A DNA stretch of 64,000 nucleotides from Octopus sinensis. Taxonomy: Eukaryota. The translations under genes were made by a program, and so were the position numbers. Where the stretch lies: assembly GCF_006345805.1 (NCBI RefSeq), contig NC_042998.1, positions 1,550,001 to 1,614,000 on the forward strand, in the 5' to 3' direction. Positions 7,385 to 58,445 of the stretch are shown piece after piece (positions within the stretch are counted from its first letter, which is position 1; each line of letters opens with the position of its first letter). The notes beneath the pieces are model-generated. The model worked only from the letters and a program-made list of their open reading frames with translations, was not told the DNA's origin and did not search any database.

Positions 7385-7812
7385 GTGGCTGTGATTGAAA
7401 AACCTGCTTCGCAACCATGTGGTCTCGGGTTCGGTCTAACTGTGCAGAACCTTTTACTACAACCCCGGCCGACCAAAGCCTTGTGAATGAATTTGGTACA
7501 TGAAAACTGAAAGAATCCCACCATATGTACATATACACACCCGTACGTACTCACATCTTACACACACACACACGCACACGCACACGCACATATCTGTATG
7601 TATGTATGTATGTATGCATCTGTTCTTGTTTGTCCCCTCTGTGTTTAGCCCCTTGTGGGTAGTAAAGAAATATGTATATACGTATGTATGCATGTATGTG
7701 CGAAGGTCTGTCTTTATGTTTGTCCCTCATCGCCGTTTGACAACGAATGTTCGATGACGTCCTCATAACACAACAGTTCGGCATAAGAGACCGATAGATC
7801 AAGTACCAGACT
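7385..7812 (+). mobile_element. SINE family A, degenerate, with a family B Tx1-like tail fragment (7621-7672) inserted in its (TATG)n middle
   Basis: Family A head and tail flank TGTTCTTGTTTGTCCCCTCTGTGTTTAGCCCCTTGTGGGTAGTAAAGAAA. Confidence 0.7.
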
Positions 7813-16455: not shown

Positions 16456-16782
16456 ATATACATGAATACAGATGCATATATGTGTATGTATGCATGTGTA
16501 TATATGCACATTTATATATATACATATACACATATATATATATACTTATGCATATATATATATAAATACATATATAAATATATATATATTTACACACACG
16601 CATATATTCATAGATATACATATATGTTTGTGCATACATATGTACGCATATATTATATAAATATACGTACATATATGTTGTATATATATATATATAGTTC
16701 ATATATGTATATATATATATACGTATATATATATATACGTATATATATATGCATATATATATAGAGAGAGAGATATATATAG

Positions 16783-17006
16783 ATGCGAGCTGGCAGAAAC
16801 GTTAGCACGCCGGGCGAAATACTTAGCAGTATTTCGTCTGACGCTGCGTTCTGAGTTCAAATTCCGCCGAGGTCGACTTTGCCTTTCATTCTTTCGGGAT
16901 CGATAAATTAAGTACCAGTTACGCACTGGGGTCGATGTAATCGACTCAATCCCTTTGTCTGTCCTTGTTTGTCGCCTTTATGTTTAGCCCCTTGTGGCAA
17001 TAAAAA
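16783..17006 (+). mobile_element. SINE family B with Tx1-like 3' tail
   Basis: GCGAGCTGGCAGAAACGTTAGC head; tail TTTAGCCCCTTGTGGCAATAAAAATA followed by TATG. Confidence 0.85.
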
Positions 17007-17050
17007 TATATGTATATAGGTACATATATGCATATATATATATATAAACA

Positions 17051-24203: not shown

Positions 24204-24406
24204 CGTTTCAAATTTTGCCACAAAAGCAGCACTTTTACATCGACCCCAGTGTTCAACTGGTACTTATTTTGTCGACCACAAAAGGATGAAAGGCAAAGTC
24301 GACCTTGGCAGAATTTGAACTCAGGACGTAAAGCCCGACGAAATACCTATTTCTTTACTACCCACAAGGGGCAAAACACAGAAACGTGCTAACGTTTCTG
24401 CCTTAC
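24203..24406 (-). mobile_element. Nested SINE family B pieces (Tx1-like tail inside a type-ii copy)
   Basis: Junction GTAGTAAAGAAATAG|GTATTTCGTC at ~24346. Confidence 0.75.
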
Positions 24407-32537: not shown

Positions 32538-32900
32538 ACGGTTTCAAATTTTGGCACAAGGCTAGCAATTTTGGGGAAGGGTGTAAGTCAATTACATCGA
32601 TCCCAGAGTTTAACTGGTGCTTATTTAATGGATGCCGAAAAGATGAAAGGCAAAGTCGACCTCGGCGGAATTTGAACTCAGAACGTAATGACGGACGAAA
32701 TACCTATCTGTTTACTACCCACAGGGGTCTAAATACAGAGAGGACAAACAAGGACAGACAAACGGATTAAGTCGATTATATCGACCCCAGTGCGTAACTG
32801 GTACTTATTTAATCGACCCCGAAAGGATGAAAGGCAAAATCGACCTCGGCGGAACTTGAACTCAGACCATAACGGCAGACGAAATACCGCTAAGCATTTT
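32538..32900 (-). mobile_element. SINE family B with Tx1-like tail nested in a type-ii family B copy
   Basis: Junction GTAGTAAACAGATAG|GTATTTCGTC at ~32703; core duplicated. Confidence 0.85.
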
Positions 32901-33329
32901 AATCTGCCAGCATACTGCTGGCAAGAGAGAGTGGGGCGGGGGGTTCGGAACCGGAAATAATGAAGTTATTCTATGAATTATCCAGCTAAACAGCGGCTGA
33001 GTTGACCAAAGTACAAGGCGTTGTTGAGTGATTTTAAGCTGTAGATAACGTAGAGGTGTAGGTGAAGGAATAAGAAATGTGAAAGGTGCAGTTATTGTGT
33101 TCTATGAGGAAGGTGGTGCTGATGAGGACAGGACGGGTTTGCAAATTGGGTCGGGAACAAGAAGAAAGTCCGTAGGAAGGCAAAAGAGAAAAGGATAAAG
33201 CTATGCATCAGTAAGCCGTGTAGGTGACGGACACGTTTGAATGAAGTAAGGCGTTTTATAGAAGGGGAAAGAAGACTGAAGAAGGCGGAAAGTGAATAGA
33301 TTCTTTCCCCGGTGACCATCAGTACAGAA

Positions 33330-38918: not shown

Positions 38919-38963
<45 letters not shown>

Positions 38964-38965
<2 letters not shown>

Positions 38966-39230
38966 AGGCGCAATGGCCCAGTGGTTAGGGCAGCGGACTC
39001 GCGGTTTCGATTCCCAGACCGGGCGTTGTGCGTGTTTATTGAGCGAAAACACCTAAAGCTCCATGAGGCTCCAGCAGGGTGTTGTGGCGACCCCTGTTGT
39101 ATTCTTTAGCCCCAACCTTCTCTCATGCTTTCTTCCTGTTTCTCGGGTAACGCTGCGATGGACTGGCATCCCGTCCAGCTGGGGGGAAACCACATACGCC
39201 ATAGAAACCGGGAAACCGGGCCCAAGGGCA
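38964..39230 (+). mobile_element. SINE family D
   Basis: Matches 13545-13846. Confidence 0.85.
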
Positions 39231-39260: not shown

Positions 39261-41028
<1,768 letters not shown>

Positions 41029-41212
41029 TTAAAGTAATATGCATTAATGATAAAGTATATATATAATATAATGTTCCTTTTTGGTAAGGTCAACAAAAAA
41101 AATACTCCATCCGATGAGAGATAAATATTATTTAACAACACAATACGTTGAGAAATATTTGAAACCTATCATCAGGCACAAATCACATAGCATAATGAAC
41201 TAATAGATATTT

Positions 41213-41925: not shown

Positions 41926-42116
<191 letters not shown>

Positions 42117-43203
42117 TGTTTCTTTATTAGCCACACAGGGCTGCACACAGATAGAACAAATTACAAGGTAGAGCTTTTCTTTTGAAGGTTTAAATAAAAA
42201 AAAAAAAGGAAGGGGAGTTTCGATCAAAAGGGATCGTAAAAGGAGAGAAAGAGGACAAAAAAAGGGGGGTTAAAAAAAAAAAAAAGGGGGAGAGGAAAAA
42301 AAAATTGATCAATAGGGATCGTTATCACAGAAATGTCAATATGAAGTGTAAAGGGGAGGACAGGTGAGGTTTACCCGTGGAAAGAAAAGCCTACGGAAAA
42401 GACCACGGTAACCTCGGTCAATGAAGTCACATTTTATATTTATTTTTTTTTTTTTTTTTTTTTGCAAATAAGCAACTCTCTGTTTTCGATTTCTGGGTTC
42501 ATAGGACTATGCTCAAGGTGGCTTCGTCATTCATACGTGCCATTCTTGCTACATTCACCCATCTTTTTTTAAAACATTCGCTAGACAAAACTTGCCTCTC
42601 TACTCTCACTTTCCTTTTCAAGTGGTACTTGAAGAAGTTGATGAGAGATTGACCAGAGAGGAAAGTGTTTGTCTCCAATCCTTTCAGACGCGTCCACCAG
42701 ATACATTCTTTCGCCATAGCCACAAGGATGATGAAAATAGCTCTTCTTCCCGTTTGAAGGAAGGAGCGTGACAATATTGACGATAGACTCAGCTGATAAA
42801 CCGACTCGTCCCACACGTGACAGCAGTTGTTCGACATAAGCCCACAGGTCGGAAATTGTTGGACACTGAACGAGTGCGTGCAGAACGGTTTCGTCGCTCT
42901 GACCGCATCTCGGGCAGGTCGGCCCCGTGTTTCTCGAGCCGTGTCTGTAGAGCTTATCCGAACGGGTAGCGCTTCTCGGTAGCACTGCCAGGCCAGGGAT
43001 CTCTGGAAGTTGTCCATGGGCCCTGGCCCGAAAGCCGTCCCGAACAGGGGGGTCAGGTACTCCTCGTCGACGTCCAGGTTCGCCCCGAGCTCGTCGTCGT
43101 ACCTCCCCTCCACTAAACCCCTATAGAATGCTTTGGTTGTGTTGAAGTCACTTAAGGTCGACCCAGGACGGCAGAGTTGCTTGAGAGCAACGCGACACTC
43201 GCG
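42117..43203 (-). mobile_element. 5'-truncated Tx1/L1-group LINE, subfamily B
   Basis: ORF2 C-terminus (RSLAWQCYREALPVR, CPRCGQSDETVLHALVQC) paralogous to copy A; diverged 3' UTR. Confidence 0.9.
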
Positions 43204-43788
<585 letters not shown>

Positions 43789-44107
43789 CTTTCTTTTATT
43801 AGCCACACAGGGCTGAATACAGAGGGGACAAATACAAATGCAGAGCTTTTCTTTTCGAGGGTGGAAAAAAAAAAAAAAAAAATGTAAGATTGCGATCAAA
43901 AGGGATCGAGAGGAGGAAAAAAAAAAAAAAAAAAAAATGGAAAAAAAAGGAAAATCGTGTATCACAGAAATAATGGTGTAAACATTGATATAACAAGATT
44001 GGGTTCATCCGTGGAAGAAAAGCCTACAGAAAAGACCACGGGAACCCCAGTCAGGGAGGAATAAACACATGAGGTCAAAAATGCTCTCTTTCTTTCTTTT
44101 TTACGAT

Positions 44108-47100
44108 CTACAGGATCATGCTCAAAATGGTTTCGTTACTAGCACGCACCATCTTTGCAACATTCACCCATCTTTTTTTGAATCTTTCGCGAGACAAAAC
44201 TTCCCTCTCCATTCTCACCTTCCTTTTCAAGTGGTACTTGAAAAAGTTGATGAGCGATTGGCCAGAGAGGTAAGTGTTTGTCTCTAATCCTTTCGCTCGA
44301 GTCCACCACACACATTCTTTCACCATGGCCACCAGTACGATGAAAACTGCCTTGCCTTCCCGGTTGAGGGAAGGGGGCGGAGCAATTCTCACGATAGACT
44401 CGGCCGATAGGCGGATTCGTCCCACACGTGACAGCAGCCGTTCGGCATAAGCCCACAGGTCGGAAATGGTTGGACATTGCACGAGTGCGTGCAGAACGGT
44501 TTCGTCGCTCTGACCGCATCTCGGGCAAGTCGGTCCAGTGTGTCTGGAACCGTGTCTGTAGAGCTTATCCCGAACAGGTAATGCTTCTCGATAGCACTGC
44601 CAGGCCAGGGATCTTTGGTGATTGTTCATAGGTCCCGGCCCGAAAGTTGTCCTGAACAGGCGGGTCCTCGTCGACGCCCAGACTCTGCCCGAGTTCGTCG
44701 TCGCACCTCCCCTCCACTAATCCTCTATAGAATGCCTTTGTTGTGATGGAGTCGCACAAGTTCGATCCCGGACGGCAGAGTTGCTTGAGAGCAACGCGAC
44801 GCTCGCGGTGCCATTCGCCTAGCCTCGGTCTCTGCTTGATCCATGACTGTAGTTCGTCCAAGGAGACGAGCTGCGGGAAAGCGCGCCGCACAAAAGGCGA
44901 CCACCCCTGTTCACCGTTGTCTATGAAGCGCCGGAGATGTCGCAGTCTCAGCGCATGTCTGCGCATCATCAACCACGGCATGCCCAGCCCTCCATTTAGC
45001 GGGTGTTGGCAGCAAATGGATCGCCTAACCATCGGAACGTTTCCCTTCCACAAGAAGCGGAAGAGTATGCGTTCCAGTTTGGTGATGGTAGGGTCGGGAC
45101 AAGGCACGACGGTCAGACGATACTCGATGACGGATGCGATGTACGCGTTCGCCACCTCCGCCCGACCTTTTAGGGATAGCTTCTCTCAGTCCATTTCTGG
45201 GTGAGAGTAGCCACCCTAGTCGTTATCTCGCCCCAGTTCTTCTCCATTTGGAGGTCCGGACCGAACCAGACCCCGAGCAATTTAACCGGTCCGTCCGTCC
45301 AGCGTCCCACGATGGAGACGCTGTTGGACGGCATGGGCTTGCTTCTCCAGGTGCCGAGCCGCAAGCCCACTGACTTTTCCCGGTTAATTTTTGCTCCCGT
45401 TACCGCTTCGTATTCTTTCAGTGTCTCGCCGACCAGCTCGATGTGCTCGTAGCTCGACACTATGACGGTGACGTCATCCGCGTATGCAGACACGCTCCTC
45501 CCGCATCCCAGCTCTCGTGGATGCCCCTCAGCGTCGCCAGTTTCCGCAGTAGTGGCTCAAGAGTCAGTACATACAGCAGCGATGAGAGGGGGCATCCCTG
45601 ACGAACCGAACGCATGATGTTAAAAGGTCTGGATAGATGACCATTTACGCGAACTACTGAGCGGATGCCGCTGTATAAGGCAGCGATCCAACCGCGGAAA
45701 ACTGGACCGAAACCAGCCGCTTTGAGGACAGCCTCCAAGTAGTGATGGTCTACCCTATCGAAGGCTTTTGATTGATCCAAATTGATCAGCGCCCCACCCA
45801 TGCCAGGATTTTTAACTACCCTGTCTATGATGTAGCGCATCAGATGGAGGTTGTCATGAATACTTCTACCCGGCACGGCGCATGTTTGCGCCTTGTCGAT
45901 TAGTTTCTTGATGACAAGCGCCAACCTCTCGGCTAACACCTTGGCCAAAATTTTCAAATCTGCGTTGAGCAGAGTGATGGGCCTGAAATTATCTATGACG
46001 TCCCCCTTGTTTGGGTCTTTCTTGATCAGTGCCACTGCTCCTCGCTTTACAAAAGCAGGAATACTCCCGTTCTGCTGCCAGTTGCAGTAGACAGCTGCCA
46101 AGACGCCTCCAAACAAGTCTGGCATATGAAAATAAAATTTAGGGCAGACCATCCAAGCCTGGTGACTTGTCTCTCGCGCAGCCTACCATCGCATCCTGTA
46201 CATCCGCAGCTGTGATAGGCTTTTCACAAGACTCCACCTCCCTTGCTGAGAGTCGTGGCAAGGCATGCAGGTAGGCACTAAAGTCCACTCTGCTTTCTGA
46301 CTCACCACTTGTCCCAAACAGTTGGGTGAAGTGTTGTTGAAAAACCCCACACATCCTTTTAGGCTCGAGCAATTCGCGCCCCTGTTCATCTATAAGAGAC
46401 TTGATGGTGGCTCTGTTGCCTCGTTGCGTCTCCACCACTCGGGCCTCTTGGGCGGCTCCAACTCCTTCGTTCCTCAGAGCACGCATCCTAGCTCTGACAA
46501 CGCATCCCTCGTGTTTGGCGTTGAGGTGTTGGTCGAGGGCCAATCTCGCCGCCAGTACGTTGGACGCGATGCCAGTTCTAAGTGCCTCTTCTAAAACCTT
46601 AACTAATTCTCCCTCTATTCTATTTCGGTCTAATGCTAGGGCTCTACTGTATCTGACTGATTCTGCTTTAATCGCTTTTTTTAGGGCATACCACCATCTG
46701 TTGTTGATGATGGTACCCGTCAAAGCTCTCTTAACTAATGTGCTGATCCGGTCCCTGTAAACCTGTCGTGCTGTAAAAGACGCGTTCAGTTTCCAGTAAC
46801 CAGGACCCTGCCTATGTGTCTTATCTAAGTCAAGTGTACAAGTCACAAACTTGTGATCTGTGTAACTGACTATATGAAATTGTGGACAACCTACACTATT
46901 TTTATCTATTGTCCTACAGAATACTCTATCTAAGTATGATCTGGACGACCCGATGCGGTTACTCCATGTCCACATTGGCACATTCGGGTGGTCCAGTCGG
47001 TACCTGTCAGACAGTTGGAAACGTCTGAGCAGGTCTTTGAGGCATTTGCATCCCCTTCTATTGCTATCTCTGCCCACGTAGTCTAGATGCGTGTCCAGGG

Positions 47101-47533
47101 TGGCATTCCAATCCCCCACTAAAAGTAAAGGACGAGACGTTCCCATGAAAGACTCTAGACGTCGAAAGAAATCTGGTCGGCCTGTTAAGGACGGAGCATA
47201 AACTGCTATCAGTCGAAAAGCACACTCATTGCTGCCATCGACATCCAAAACGACCAGCCTACCCTCCGGGTCTAGGAAATTTGCTCTTACTTTGAGATCC
47301 AGACTCTTCCGGATAAGCACCGCGGTGCCACCTCCGCCCATTCTCGGTAGACACGGAGAAAAATAAATGTTGAAATGTGTACCGAAAATGTGCTGGAGTG
47401 CCCGCAAGCTGTGGAGTCTGGTCTCACTGATGGCTATGATATTCAGATTTAGTGACTTGATGTCATTTAACAGGTAGCCTTGTTTCCAAGGCGACCCCAA
47501 GCCACGTACATTTATACTACCTATTCTGAGCAT
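44108..47533 (-). pseudogene. Tx1 ORF2 (APE endonuclease + reverse transcriptase + zinc finger), split by about four frameshifts
   Basis: SINVRGL, ISETRL, VYAP, GDWN, SYLDR, TDH, GPGYWKLN, KSPGLDGLP, FRPITLLNADLKI, LDQSKAFDRV, SVRQGCPLS, AYADD, GGLGMP. Confidence 0.92.
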
Positions 47534-49726
47534 GTTCCGATAAAAGTGCAAAAAAGGAAAAGGAGAGAGAAAAGGTTACTTGTTTTTCGAAAGTTCTGTC
47601 TTTCACCTCACGGTCTTCTTCTATGAGGCTTTTATACAGTTTTTTCGATGAGTACTTTTGAAATCTCCCTACTGCATCAGGGTAAAGAGATTTCAGGGTG
47701 CTGTATGTGTTCTGTGTCACGTGTATTATTTTAATGTGTTGTGGTGGTGTGTGTGTGGGTGGTTACTTGTTTTTATGTCGTTTTCAGTAATGTTAGTGTT
47801 TGACCTAATGTGTTCCATTAGGTCGTGGTTGTTTGTGTTTATGGCTGTCAACATTTTTGGGGGGTTTGATGATGGTGTGTTTGTGTTGATGTGGTGTTTT
47901 CTGTGGATGTTTTTGTTTCGGGAGTGGTGTATCTTCCCGCTTTGTTTGTTATTTTTTCTTTTCTTTTTTTCCCCTTTTTCTTCTCCCCGCTGTGGCTATT
48001 TGCCAATCTTCCGTGTCTTCTTCGTCTAATGACAGATCAGACGAATCGGAGTCTGGAAGAGGGAAAGTATTGGGGTCTATTGTCGACTGTGTTGGTTTTT
48101 GTTGTTGGGTTGGTTGGTGAGCGTTTGGTTGTGGTGTATGCGGTTTTGGATGTGGGGTTTGGGTATTTTGTGTTTGAGTGATTGTGGGTATTGTTGTGTT
48201 GTTTAGGGTCTCAATTTTGTGGGGATTTGGAGTTGTAATTGTTTCTTCATTTTTGCTGGGTGTCTTTTTGGCAGATGTCCTTGGTTTGGGAGTTGGTATA
48301 TTCTTGGTTGTTGTTGTTGGTGATGCTGCTTCTGTTCTTGGTGCTGCAGTTGGTGTGGTTGTTTGTTTGGTGAGGTTTGTTCCTGCAAAAAGTGGTGTGG
48401 GTAGTAAACCTTGTTTATTTGTTTTTGTTTCCGGCTGCTGTTGTTGTTGCTGTTGTTTTCTTGCGGCAGATTCGCAGTTTTTTTTGAGGTGTTGCTCACT
48501 GCCGCATATGTAGCAACGTGGTCTTCTGCCATCGACGACCACATATAACTTGTGGTCGTCTGATACACATATCTGGGTGGGTATTTTTTTTATATCTTCA
48601 TGATGTATATGTAGAAGAAATTCTATTTTTTTCCCACCCAGTTTTTATGCTCTGTGACTGTGGTTTCCAAAATAGTATAATTCGCCATTTTTACGCATAA
48701 GGCCTTTACAAGCCATAGACTATTGGCTATTTTGGGGACATTGTTTAGAGTGATCTTAGTCACTTTCTGTCCCCGATAGCTTGGTGTAAGTTGGAGTTCA
48801 TCTGAGTGAAGAGTTAGCGTTGAGAAATGTCTAGCTAACTCTTCGGTGTAGAAAACGACTTGTATGTGGGCAAATTTGTTCCACCAGGTTACATATTCTT
48901 TGTGATCCCAGATGGGTTTCAAGCACTTCTCTATTTTGCTTGTGTTGGCCTTCTCTGGGATTTTTGTTTTTTTGTTAACTATTTTATAAATGATTGTTCG
49001 TCTTTTTTCATTTTCCAAAATATCTTCTGGTATGTTTATTTTTACTATACCTTCTGATTCTGTTATTTTGATGTTCGTGTCCTGTATTTGTTGAGCCGTA
49101 AAGTATATTGTTGTTTTTTTTTCTTTAATCGCCTCAGCGAAATTTGTTGTTGTTTTGTTATTGTTGTTGCTTGTGGTGATGTTGTTGTTGGCTGCAGTTT
49201 GTAAAATTGGTGTGTTTGGTTCGATCGTGCAAGTAGGAAGGGGTGGAAAATTGCCTGCGTACTTTAGTCCTGCACTAGGGCAAAATTCGACATTTCGTTT
49301 GCTTGTCGTCGTTATTTTTTCACTTGTTGGTGATGGAGTGAGCAGTGGTTGAAGGGAATTGTTGTTGTCGTCGTTGTTGTTGTTGTTGTTATTGTCGTTC
49401 TTGGTGACGGCGGTGGTGTTGGTAGTATTAGTAGCATTGACGGCACGGTCTTTGGTGGCGGTGATGGTGATGTTGGTGTTGTTATTGGTGGCGATATCTT
49501 TAGTAGGGATAGCAGTTTTAGTAGCAGATTCTGCCATGGTGTTGGTGGTGGTGGTGGACTCACTGATGGTGTTGACGGTGCTTGGCCTTGCGACCTTTGT
49601 TTTGTATTTGTTGCTGTTGGTGGTGGTGGAGTTGTCAGGTTCGGCGTATGCTAACAGAGCATCCTGTTTTTCTGTTTCTGCGTCACGCTTGACTTGCAAC
49701 TCAGCCTCGTGGTGGCCAGTGGCCAT
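47517..49726 (-). pseudogene. Tx1 ORF1 (gag-like, T/N-rich low complexity, CCHC knuckle), frameshifted
   Basis: MATGHHEAE start; CYICGSEQHLKKNC; last segment stops just inside the ORF2 start region. Confidence 0.75.
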
Positions 49727-49951
49727 TTTGGAAATAAAATGGCTAAATGAAACCACGAAGGCTATGAGAATTTTTTCTTTTAAATTTTGCCCACTAGGGG
49801 AAAAATTTTGTGTCGATATTTATCAAAGGTTTACAGTGGATGTTGTTGCACAACTTTTAAGCACAAAATGTTTGTCAATATACACTTTTAAATAGTCAAA
49901 ATAAATGATTACCTTCGGAGCTGAAACGACATCACATCCGTCAGAGATAGG

Positions 49952-50050: not shown

Positions 50051-50375
50051 GAGTACTCCGTCGGTTTCGACGACGAGGGTCCCAGCTGATCCGACCAACG
50101 GAACAGCTTGCTCATGAAATTAACATGCAAGAGGCTGAACACACCACAGACACGTGTACCCTTAACGTAGTTCTCGGGGAGATTCAGCGGGACACAGAGT
50201 GTGACAAGGCCGGCCCTTTGAAATATAGGTACTACTCATTTTTACCAGCTGAGTGGACTGGAGCGACGTGAAAGTAAAGTGTCTTGCTCAAGGACACAAC
50301 GCGTCGCCGGGAATTGAACTCACGACCTTACGATCATTAACCGAATGCTTCTAACCACTAAGCGACGCACCTTCA
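50050..50375 (-). mobile_element. SINE family E whose 3' end runs into the (TATC)n tract at 49946-50049
   Basis: Matches 32070-32392. Confidence 0.88.
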
Positions 50376-50552
50376 CATACATACATACATACATACATAC
50401 ATGCATGCATACATACATACATACATGCATACATACATACATACATGCATACATACATCCATACTACATACATACATGCATGCATACATACATGCATACA
50501 TGCATACATACATCATACATACATACAATATACAACATACATACATACAGCA

Positions 50553-57743: not shown

Positions 57744-57960
57744 AGGCGGCGAGCTGGCAGAAACGTTAGCACGCTGGGCGAAATGTGTAGCCGTATTTCG
57801 TCTGCCGTTACGTTCTGAGTTCAAATCCCGCTGAGGTCGCAACTTTGCCTTTCATCCTTTCGGGGTCGATAAATAAAGAACCAGTTTCGCACTGGGGTCG
57901 ATACAATCTGTCCTTGTTTGTCCCCTCTATGTTTAGCCCCTTGTGGGTAGTAAAGAAATA
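57744..57960 (+). mobile_element. SINE family B with Tx1-like tail and ~16-bp TSD
   Basis: TSD TATGAGACATCATAAT / TATGAGACCCCATAAT. Confidence 0.9.
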
Positions 57961-58210
57961 TATGAGACCCCATAATTTTCCCCTAAAGTAGGGCGAAATT
58001 AAAGTCGGCTGACCTCAACTAGGAATCAAAACATTCTTTCAGATACAGTTTGCTAGGAACTAAACTTTTGCTTGTCATGTTTCATCATTAGTGAAGAGAT
58101 AATTAACTTAAAGCTTCAGAATTTAAATGTCAGCTGTTTGTCTCAAATAATGACTAGCAAATTATATCAACTATACCGATATCAATGTCGGCATTAATAC
58201 ATGTATTTGA

Positions 58211-58445
58211 AAGGCGGCGAGCTGGCAGAAACGTTAGCACGCCGGGTGAAATGTGTAGCCGTATTTCGTCGGCCGCTGCGTTCTGAGTTCAAATTCCGCC
58301 GAAGTCGACTTTGCCTTTCATCCTTTCGGGGTCGATAAATTAAGTACCAGTTACGCACTGGGGTCGATATAATCGACTTAATCCGTTTGTCTGTCCTTGT
58401 TTGTCCTCTCTGTGTTTAGCCCCTTGTGGGTAATAAAGAAGTAGG
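58211..58445 (+). mobile_element. SINE family B with Tx1-like tail and 16-bp TSD, full length
   Basis: TSD TAATACATGTATTTGA / TAATGTATGTATTTGA. Confidence 0.9.

Follow-up and report, generated by a model that had tools for sequence, protein, structure and literature searches.

An abundant octopus SINE with a tail common to L1/Tx1-group LINEs, and the LINE branch that probably copies it

A SINE of apparent tRNA type, estimated at about 250,000 copies in the octopus genome if a random 1-Mb sample is typical, carries a tail that is common to LINEs of the L1/Tx1 group. We consider it probable that this tail was gained by template switch and that the SINE is copied by a reverse transcriptase of the branch comprising LINE lineages C and D, and not by that of LINE family A, which is found in the window (the whole stretch of 64,000 nucleotides analysed here). 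Lineage C inserts at one base of the SINE head, a targeting that was overlooked in the initial annotation of this DNA. A wider reading, which we put forward tentatively and judge to fall a little short of evenly balanced, is that of a closed loop: this would be the first SINE with a stringent tail derived from Tx1, lineage C would amplify it and, over three or more subfamily ages, would have kept hitting base 48 of its head; the parasite would so multiply the safe landing sites of its driver, and read-through bases would steer SINE subfamilies to different sites.

The SINE and the origin of its tail

A 30-letter pattern of the tail has 61,183 exact matches in the 2.72-Gb genome and none in the reversed control. 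Searching 100 evenly spaced 10-kb stretches (the random 1 Mb) with a profile of the tail gave 107 matches, and none in reversed DNA; 91 of the matches were preceded by the SINE core and had an end that could be read. The SINE, which belongs to SINE family B (distinct from the LINE family B described below), is 229 nt long. Its head shows box-like motifs, its core is one that we take to resemble the MetaSINE core, and its tail, some 62 nt long, has no poly(A) and closes with AAAGAAA and two further bases (TA in 81/91). The motifs lie near bases 10-21 and 73-83 of the head and are presumably A and B boxes; since ARAGORN and Rfam found no tRNA in the head, its likely tRNA origin is argued from these motifs. 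Rfam gave no snRNA match for the SINE. Of 114 full-length copies, 47 are flanked by target-site duplications of 8-23 bp (median 15). The identity of copies to a single consensus is 92.9%, and that to the nearest neighbour ranges from 90 to 97.6% (median 94.5%), with none above 97.6% in the random sample. Tandem arrays in which the SINE lacks its head, with a spacing of about 186 bp, were seen at G000:C1:8970307-8971454 and in L272.

The same head and core are also joined to at least two other tails, and these diverge directly after the shared core, in agreement with the tail exchange that had been proposed. The other tails had been called unrelated; they are indeed different, and may, tentatively, hold the same small hairpin loop. 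In two of them the loop CTTGT is enclosed by a 4-bp stem, and they are often located in (ATT)n (L236, L243 and L288 among L213-L312; window 32550-32600), and their source may be another LINE of the L1/Tx1 group. On the minus strand of L251, at 1830-1860 and 1-25, there are two T-rich ends, related to each other, that carry this loop and the terminal motif and have no coding match nearby; they are a candidate source of one of these tails.

The match from which the analysis started was recovered as claimed: the 3′ terminal 43 nt of a family A LINE (43790-43832, minus strand), which have no poly(A), and the SINE tail at 7629-7670 are identical in 36 of 43 alignment columns, with one gap. The local score of this LINE end against the SINE tail is 49, and the best of 100 reversed 10-kb stretches reached 28. 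All six tail copies named before (at 7629, ~16960, ~24350, ~32705, ~57915 and ~58395) were found again by the SINE-tail profile, at 7619-7672, 16948-17008, 24382-24348, 32770-32706, 57907-57959 and 58378-58442; the profile also picked both LINE ends of the window, at 43833-43792 (E 5e-8) and 42167-42118 (E 9e-7). Two of the copies, both on the plus strand, are full SINEs with a Tx1-type tail: the one at 58213-58445 has a duplication of about 18 bp, and the one at 57745-57961, which bears a short internal deletion, a duplication of 16 bp, so that the two duplications of about 16 bp reported earlier are present, with mismatches. Another SINE with this tail, at 16782-17008 (plus strand), lies within an AT-rich tract. 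The tails near 24350 and 32705 exist as well, the former as a tail-only fragment joined to base 48 of a family B head (24348-24382, minus strand) and the latter in the first unit of a dimer, where a Tx1-tailed SINE is joined to base 48 of a second family B unit with another tail (32550-32902, minus strand). What had been read as a family B copy at 7629 is really a tail-only fragment within the microsatellite of a different SINE (7619-7672, plus strand).

The similarity persists at the consensus level, where the ends of the poly(A)-less L1/Tx1-group LINEs score between 45 and 60 against the SINE tail (families A 49, B 50, C1 45, C2 50, C3 60, D 51 and E 50; shuffled maximum 20-28). No better match came from the other LINE clade in the window, a 5′-truncated element at 39868-41030, which we take to be CR1-like; it ends in (ATT)n and its end scores only 10. 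Six copies of a further family, F, scored 46-68, values that are inflated for the three found by a SINE-like pattern. The poly(A)-less terminal motif was present in every Tx1-like family whose end was read, in a sample that took in a share of the Tx1-like families; therefore the SINE tail can be traced to this group. Families sitting in (ATT)n, at 27-31% protein identity, keep the motif too, which argues that it is ancestral on the LINE side. By sequence comparison the tail thus points to the L1/Tx1 group and to no single family, C3 and some F copies standing out. Further Tx1-like families with the same terminal motif were noticed by (ATT)n and (TC)n repeats (L175, L273, L220).

LINEs of the window and lineage C

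The full-length Tx1-like LINE of family A (43788-49944, minus strand) is flanked by (CTAT)n arrays and has broken reading frames. A 5′-truncated Tx1-like LINE of family B (42115-43203, minus strand), whose end at 42118-42167 has the terminal motif, lies in the same array; the (CTAT)n microsatellite at 43204-43787 (no strand) is the target of both. The layout of family A, ORF1 followed by endonuclease, reverse transcriptase and a C-terminal zinc finger, is of the L1/Tx1 type, and its ORF1 shows a CCHC zinc knuckle by eye with no Pfam hit. Among named relatives, the LINE protein comes closest to one from Argonauta hians (62%), and the best solved relative of ORF2 is human L1 ORF2 (E 2e-64, versus 2e-20 for R2). 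In a quick tree, built without curated Tx1L, Keno or vertebrate L1 rows, the reverse transcriptases of A to D formed one unresolved group (support 95) with two proteins automatically named TX1, and C and D came out as sisters (support 99). The putative membership of these LINEs in the Tx1 clade is argued from domain layout, automatic names and targeting. The best 30 copies of family A are 99.7% alike and end without poly(A), 29 of them with (CTAT)n on the 3′ side. Copies of families A and B stacked head to tail inside one (CTAT)n array were seen in L033/L034, L047/L048 and L050/L051, and likewise in the window at 42115-49944. A third tRNA-like SINE family occurs in the window at 50055-50380 and 38950-39224, one copy abutting (CTAT)n upstream of the family A LINE.

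Lineage C was first met as a different LINE at one SINE locus. The family of that LINE, C1, is 50-63% identical to family A, measures 5.35 kb and has intact frames in several copies, encoding an ORF1 of 520 aa, with a zinc knuckle and PF00098 above cut-off, and an ORF2 of 1134 aa, with an apurinic endonuclease, a reverse transcriptase and a C-terminal zinc finger. SINE base 48 follows directly after C1 in all of its 30 best copies, and after the older C2 and C3 in 29/30, in hosts of both tail types; lineage C as a whole thus sits at base 48 of the SINE head in 59/60 copies, with a 16-bp duplication. Nineteen of 20 C1 copies fetched whole were of full length and had the first 63 bases of the SINE head upstream, and the first base of the 16-bp duplication was the same on both sides at all 17 readable loci. 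Because the LINE parts of C1 are 99.8% alike and the host SINEs only 91.5%, the copies represent independent insertions into older SINEs. The host has the Tx1-type tail in 29/30 cases for C1, and several hosts retain their own outer duplication. Five older C-type ends (L145, L147-L150) have the exact terminus of the SINE and its junction; four of them lie on one chromosome and are maybe duplicates.

Landing sites of the SINE and its probable driver

Among the 91 random SINE ends, 25 lie at base 48 of a SINE head, five near base 15 and 61 elsewhere. The copies that carry duplications favour a motif as well: NRTA starts 29 of 47 upstream duplication copies, compared with a background of 5.8% (p 2e-24), and this motif of the dispersed copies is similar to the target site of lineage C. 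Outside SINE heads, a single-base variant of the tail predicts the landing motif (43:4 vs 1:18, p 2e-11). The base at the junction of SINE dimers is a G, also where the head has C (9/9). The SINE was also seen in antisense in the core of another family B copy in L147, L149, L284, L287 and L296, mostly at GGTA, which is a possible second hotspot.

In target-primed reverse transcription, a LINE protein attaches to the end of an RNA, nicks the target and starts to copy from there. The SINE is presumably mobilised by such LINE machinery, as we infer from the sequences. Four ends fold into one bulged hairpin, in which 92.5% of cells pair and covariation is not above that of shuffles (214/500); five of the six common tail variants fall at an unpaired position or keep the pair. 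On the proposed mechanism, the SINE would have gained the LINE tail by template switch, the LINE protein would bind the bulged hairpin in the last ~35 nt of the RNA, a GGTAT-like site in the DNA would be nicked, and reverse transcription would be primed two bases past the terminal AAAGAAA. The SINE RNA probably ends with a few read-through bases that pair with the target at the nick and so influence where the copy lands, as suggested by the tail base that predicts the landing motif and by the junction G that appears regardless of the head. The SINE would in this way use the enzyme of the LINE and in turn provide the landing sites of lineage C. The link between tail variant and landing motif, read here as a sign of such read-through, would equally be explained by two different driver families.

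The initial annotation had proposed the Tx1 family of the window, A, as partner of the SINE, and this did not hold: family A targets (CTAT)n and is highly uniform, while the SINE is older and lands elsewhere, so that A is probably not the driver. That the microsatellite-targeting families A and B together drive the SINE is very improbable in our view. Their tails match it about as well as those of C1 and D (scores 49 and 50), and B-type ends are many, with 7,511 exact pattern matches genome-wide, and varied; however, the flank starts with TATC in 30/30 sampled copies of A and 24/30 of B, and in none of the 91 random SINE ends (0/91), which argues against both, and no SINE neighbour in the random sample approaches the 99.7% of A. 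Lineages C and D and the ORF1-only family F fit the SINE better than A; for older C, D and F the tail match is equal or better, and older C and D seem to overlap with the SINE in age. The identity to consensus is 95.1% for C3 and 96.4% for D, against 92.9% for the SINE, ages that are biased young on the LINE side, where the sampled copies were those that matched a query best; activity periods of SINE and Tx1 elements thus appear to overlap for C3 and D and not for A and C1. Against C or D as a simple partner stands the near-strict choice of base 48 by C, when two thirds of the SINE ends counted above (61/91) lie elsewhere; as D is dispersed (0/30 at base 48) with no clear GGTAT preference, there is no one family that agrees with the SINE in tail as well as in target. 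The closest tails are those of family F, with scores up to 68, and we regard it as unlikely, though worth keeping in view, that the tail came from F or from its unsampled autonomous partner and that this partner, instead of C/D, is the driver. The ORF1 of F matches that of lineage C (27.7%, E 2e-21), and the one long copy examined (L358:300-1660) has ORF1 only, with no ORF2 between it and the tail, whereas no coding part lies upstream in two copies that are 5′-truncated; so far as these copies show, the family encodes no reverse transcriptase, and the comparison comes from 50 candidates and six copies, three of them with the inflated scores.

A similarly unlikely reading accepts that the tail is Tx1-derived but holds that the SINE-in-SINE junctions are mainly tandem duplications or read-through masters, in which case a site common with lineage C would say little on the driver. 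The arrays spaced at ~186 bp are in its favour, as is the junction G whatever the head base, and dimers with the same tail have variants common to both units along their whole length, so that tandem duplication does contribute and some dimers may have arisen in this way or by read-through copying. In mixed-tail dimers, however, shared variants cluster near the junction and fall from 6/23 at bases 48-63 to 0/63 at bases 141-166, as insertion predicts; dispersed copies favour the same motif, with GGTA starting the target-derived side in 13/26 of those with the main tail variant, and tail-only fragments occur at base 48 (window 24350). We give hardly any credence, the least of all, to a reverse flow, in which the LINEs took the tail from a host SINE, or to convergence on a poly(A) signal. 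Lineage C does lie directly upstream of SINE tails, and one C-type copy (L211) terminates in a SINE tail; yet the motif is present in distant families never found in the SINE, the similarity reaches about 30 nt beyond AATAAA, and 152 of 257 SINE tails have AGTAAA in its place. Copying by a reverse transcriptase of the C/D branch is the reading that we hold to be likely.

Significance and comparison with known systems

L1-group LINEs are a standing exception to the rule that a SINE and its partner share their 3′ end, and the only SINE group tied to Tx1 so far was tied by target alone. That a SINE of an estimated 250,000 copies bears a Tx1-type tail speaks for recognition of a specific RNA end, not of poly(A), by an animal L1/Tx1 lineage. 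The related families combine one tail with different targets (CTAT, ATT, the SINE head, dispersed sites), some with intact frames, and would let the shares of the endonuclease and of RNA-DNA pairing in target choice be tested directly.

In the literature searched, we found no published SINE with a Tx1 tail and no octopus SINE/Tx1 pair, although Repbase, Dfam and SINEBase may already hold these families; Tx1 is absent from the available portions of PMC5786205, PMC7245038 and PMC4824008. The portion available of PMC13282606 describes 13 L1-Tx1 families with recent activity in Octopus vulgaris and gives no partners there. Kojima 2015 (PMC4494074), in the part accessible, assigned the crocodilian SINEU to Tx1-Mar via a common target in another repeat, with no LINE found that has the SINEU 3′ end. 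As described there, SINEU and the octopus SINE are alike in being linked to Tx1 by a target inside a repeat and in having tandem SINE copies at the target. SINEU, however, has snRNA heads, poly(A) and a Mariner transposon as target, whereas the octopus SINE, with neither a U1/U2 snRNA head nor a poly(A) end, has a tRNA-like head, a tail common with the LINE and the SINE itself as target. The same text reports Kibi and Koshi, Tx1 families that target microsatellites with the units TC or TTC, which families A and B resemble in inserting into a microsatellite and from which they differ in the unit, CTAT.

The available part of Ohshima 2013 (PMC3747384) gives 58 SINE/LINE pairs, among them no Tx1 partner and none from a mollusc; three have L1-clade tails (maize ZmSINE2 and ZmSINE3, Chlamydomonas SINEX-3). 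With the stringent pairs, as far as that text describes them, the octopus SINE has in common a shared 3′ sequence and a predicted stem-loop. In the accessible text of Levy et al. (PMC2836564), Alu has a self-insertion hotspot at Alu position 133, a sense nesting at one base of its own family like that of the octopus SINE; Alu and L1, however, have only poly(A) in common, and L1 is not confined to the Alu site, in contrast to lineage C with 59/60 copies at its own. MetaSINEs (Nishihara 2016, PMC4824008), for which the part seen names no partner LINE and no octopus member, have a tRNA head, a conserved core and exchangeable tails, with a 66-bp Meta-domain behind the head, and in its combination of tRNA-like head, core and swappable tails the octopus SINE seems to be like them.
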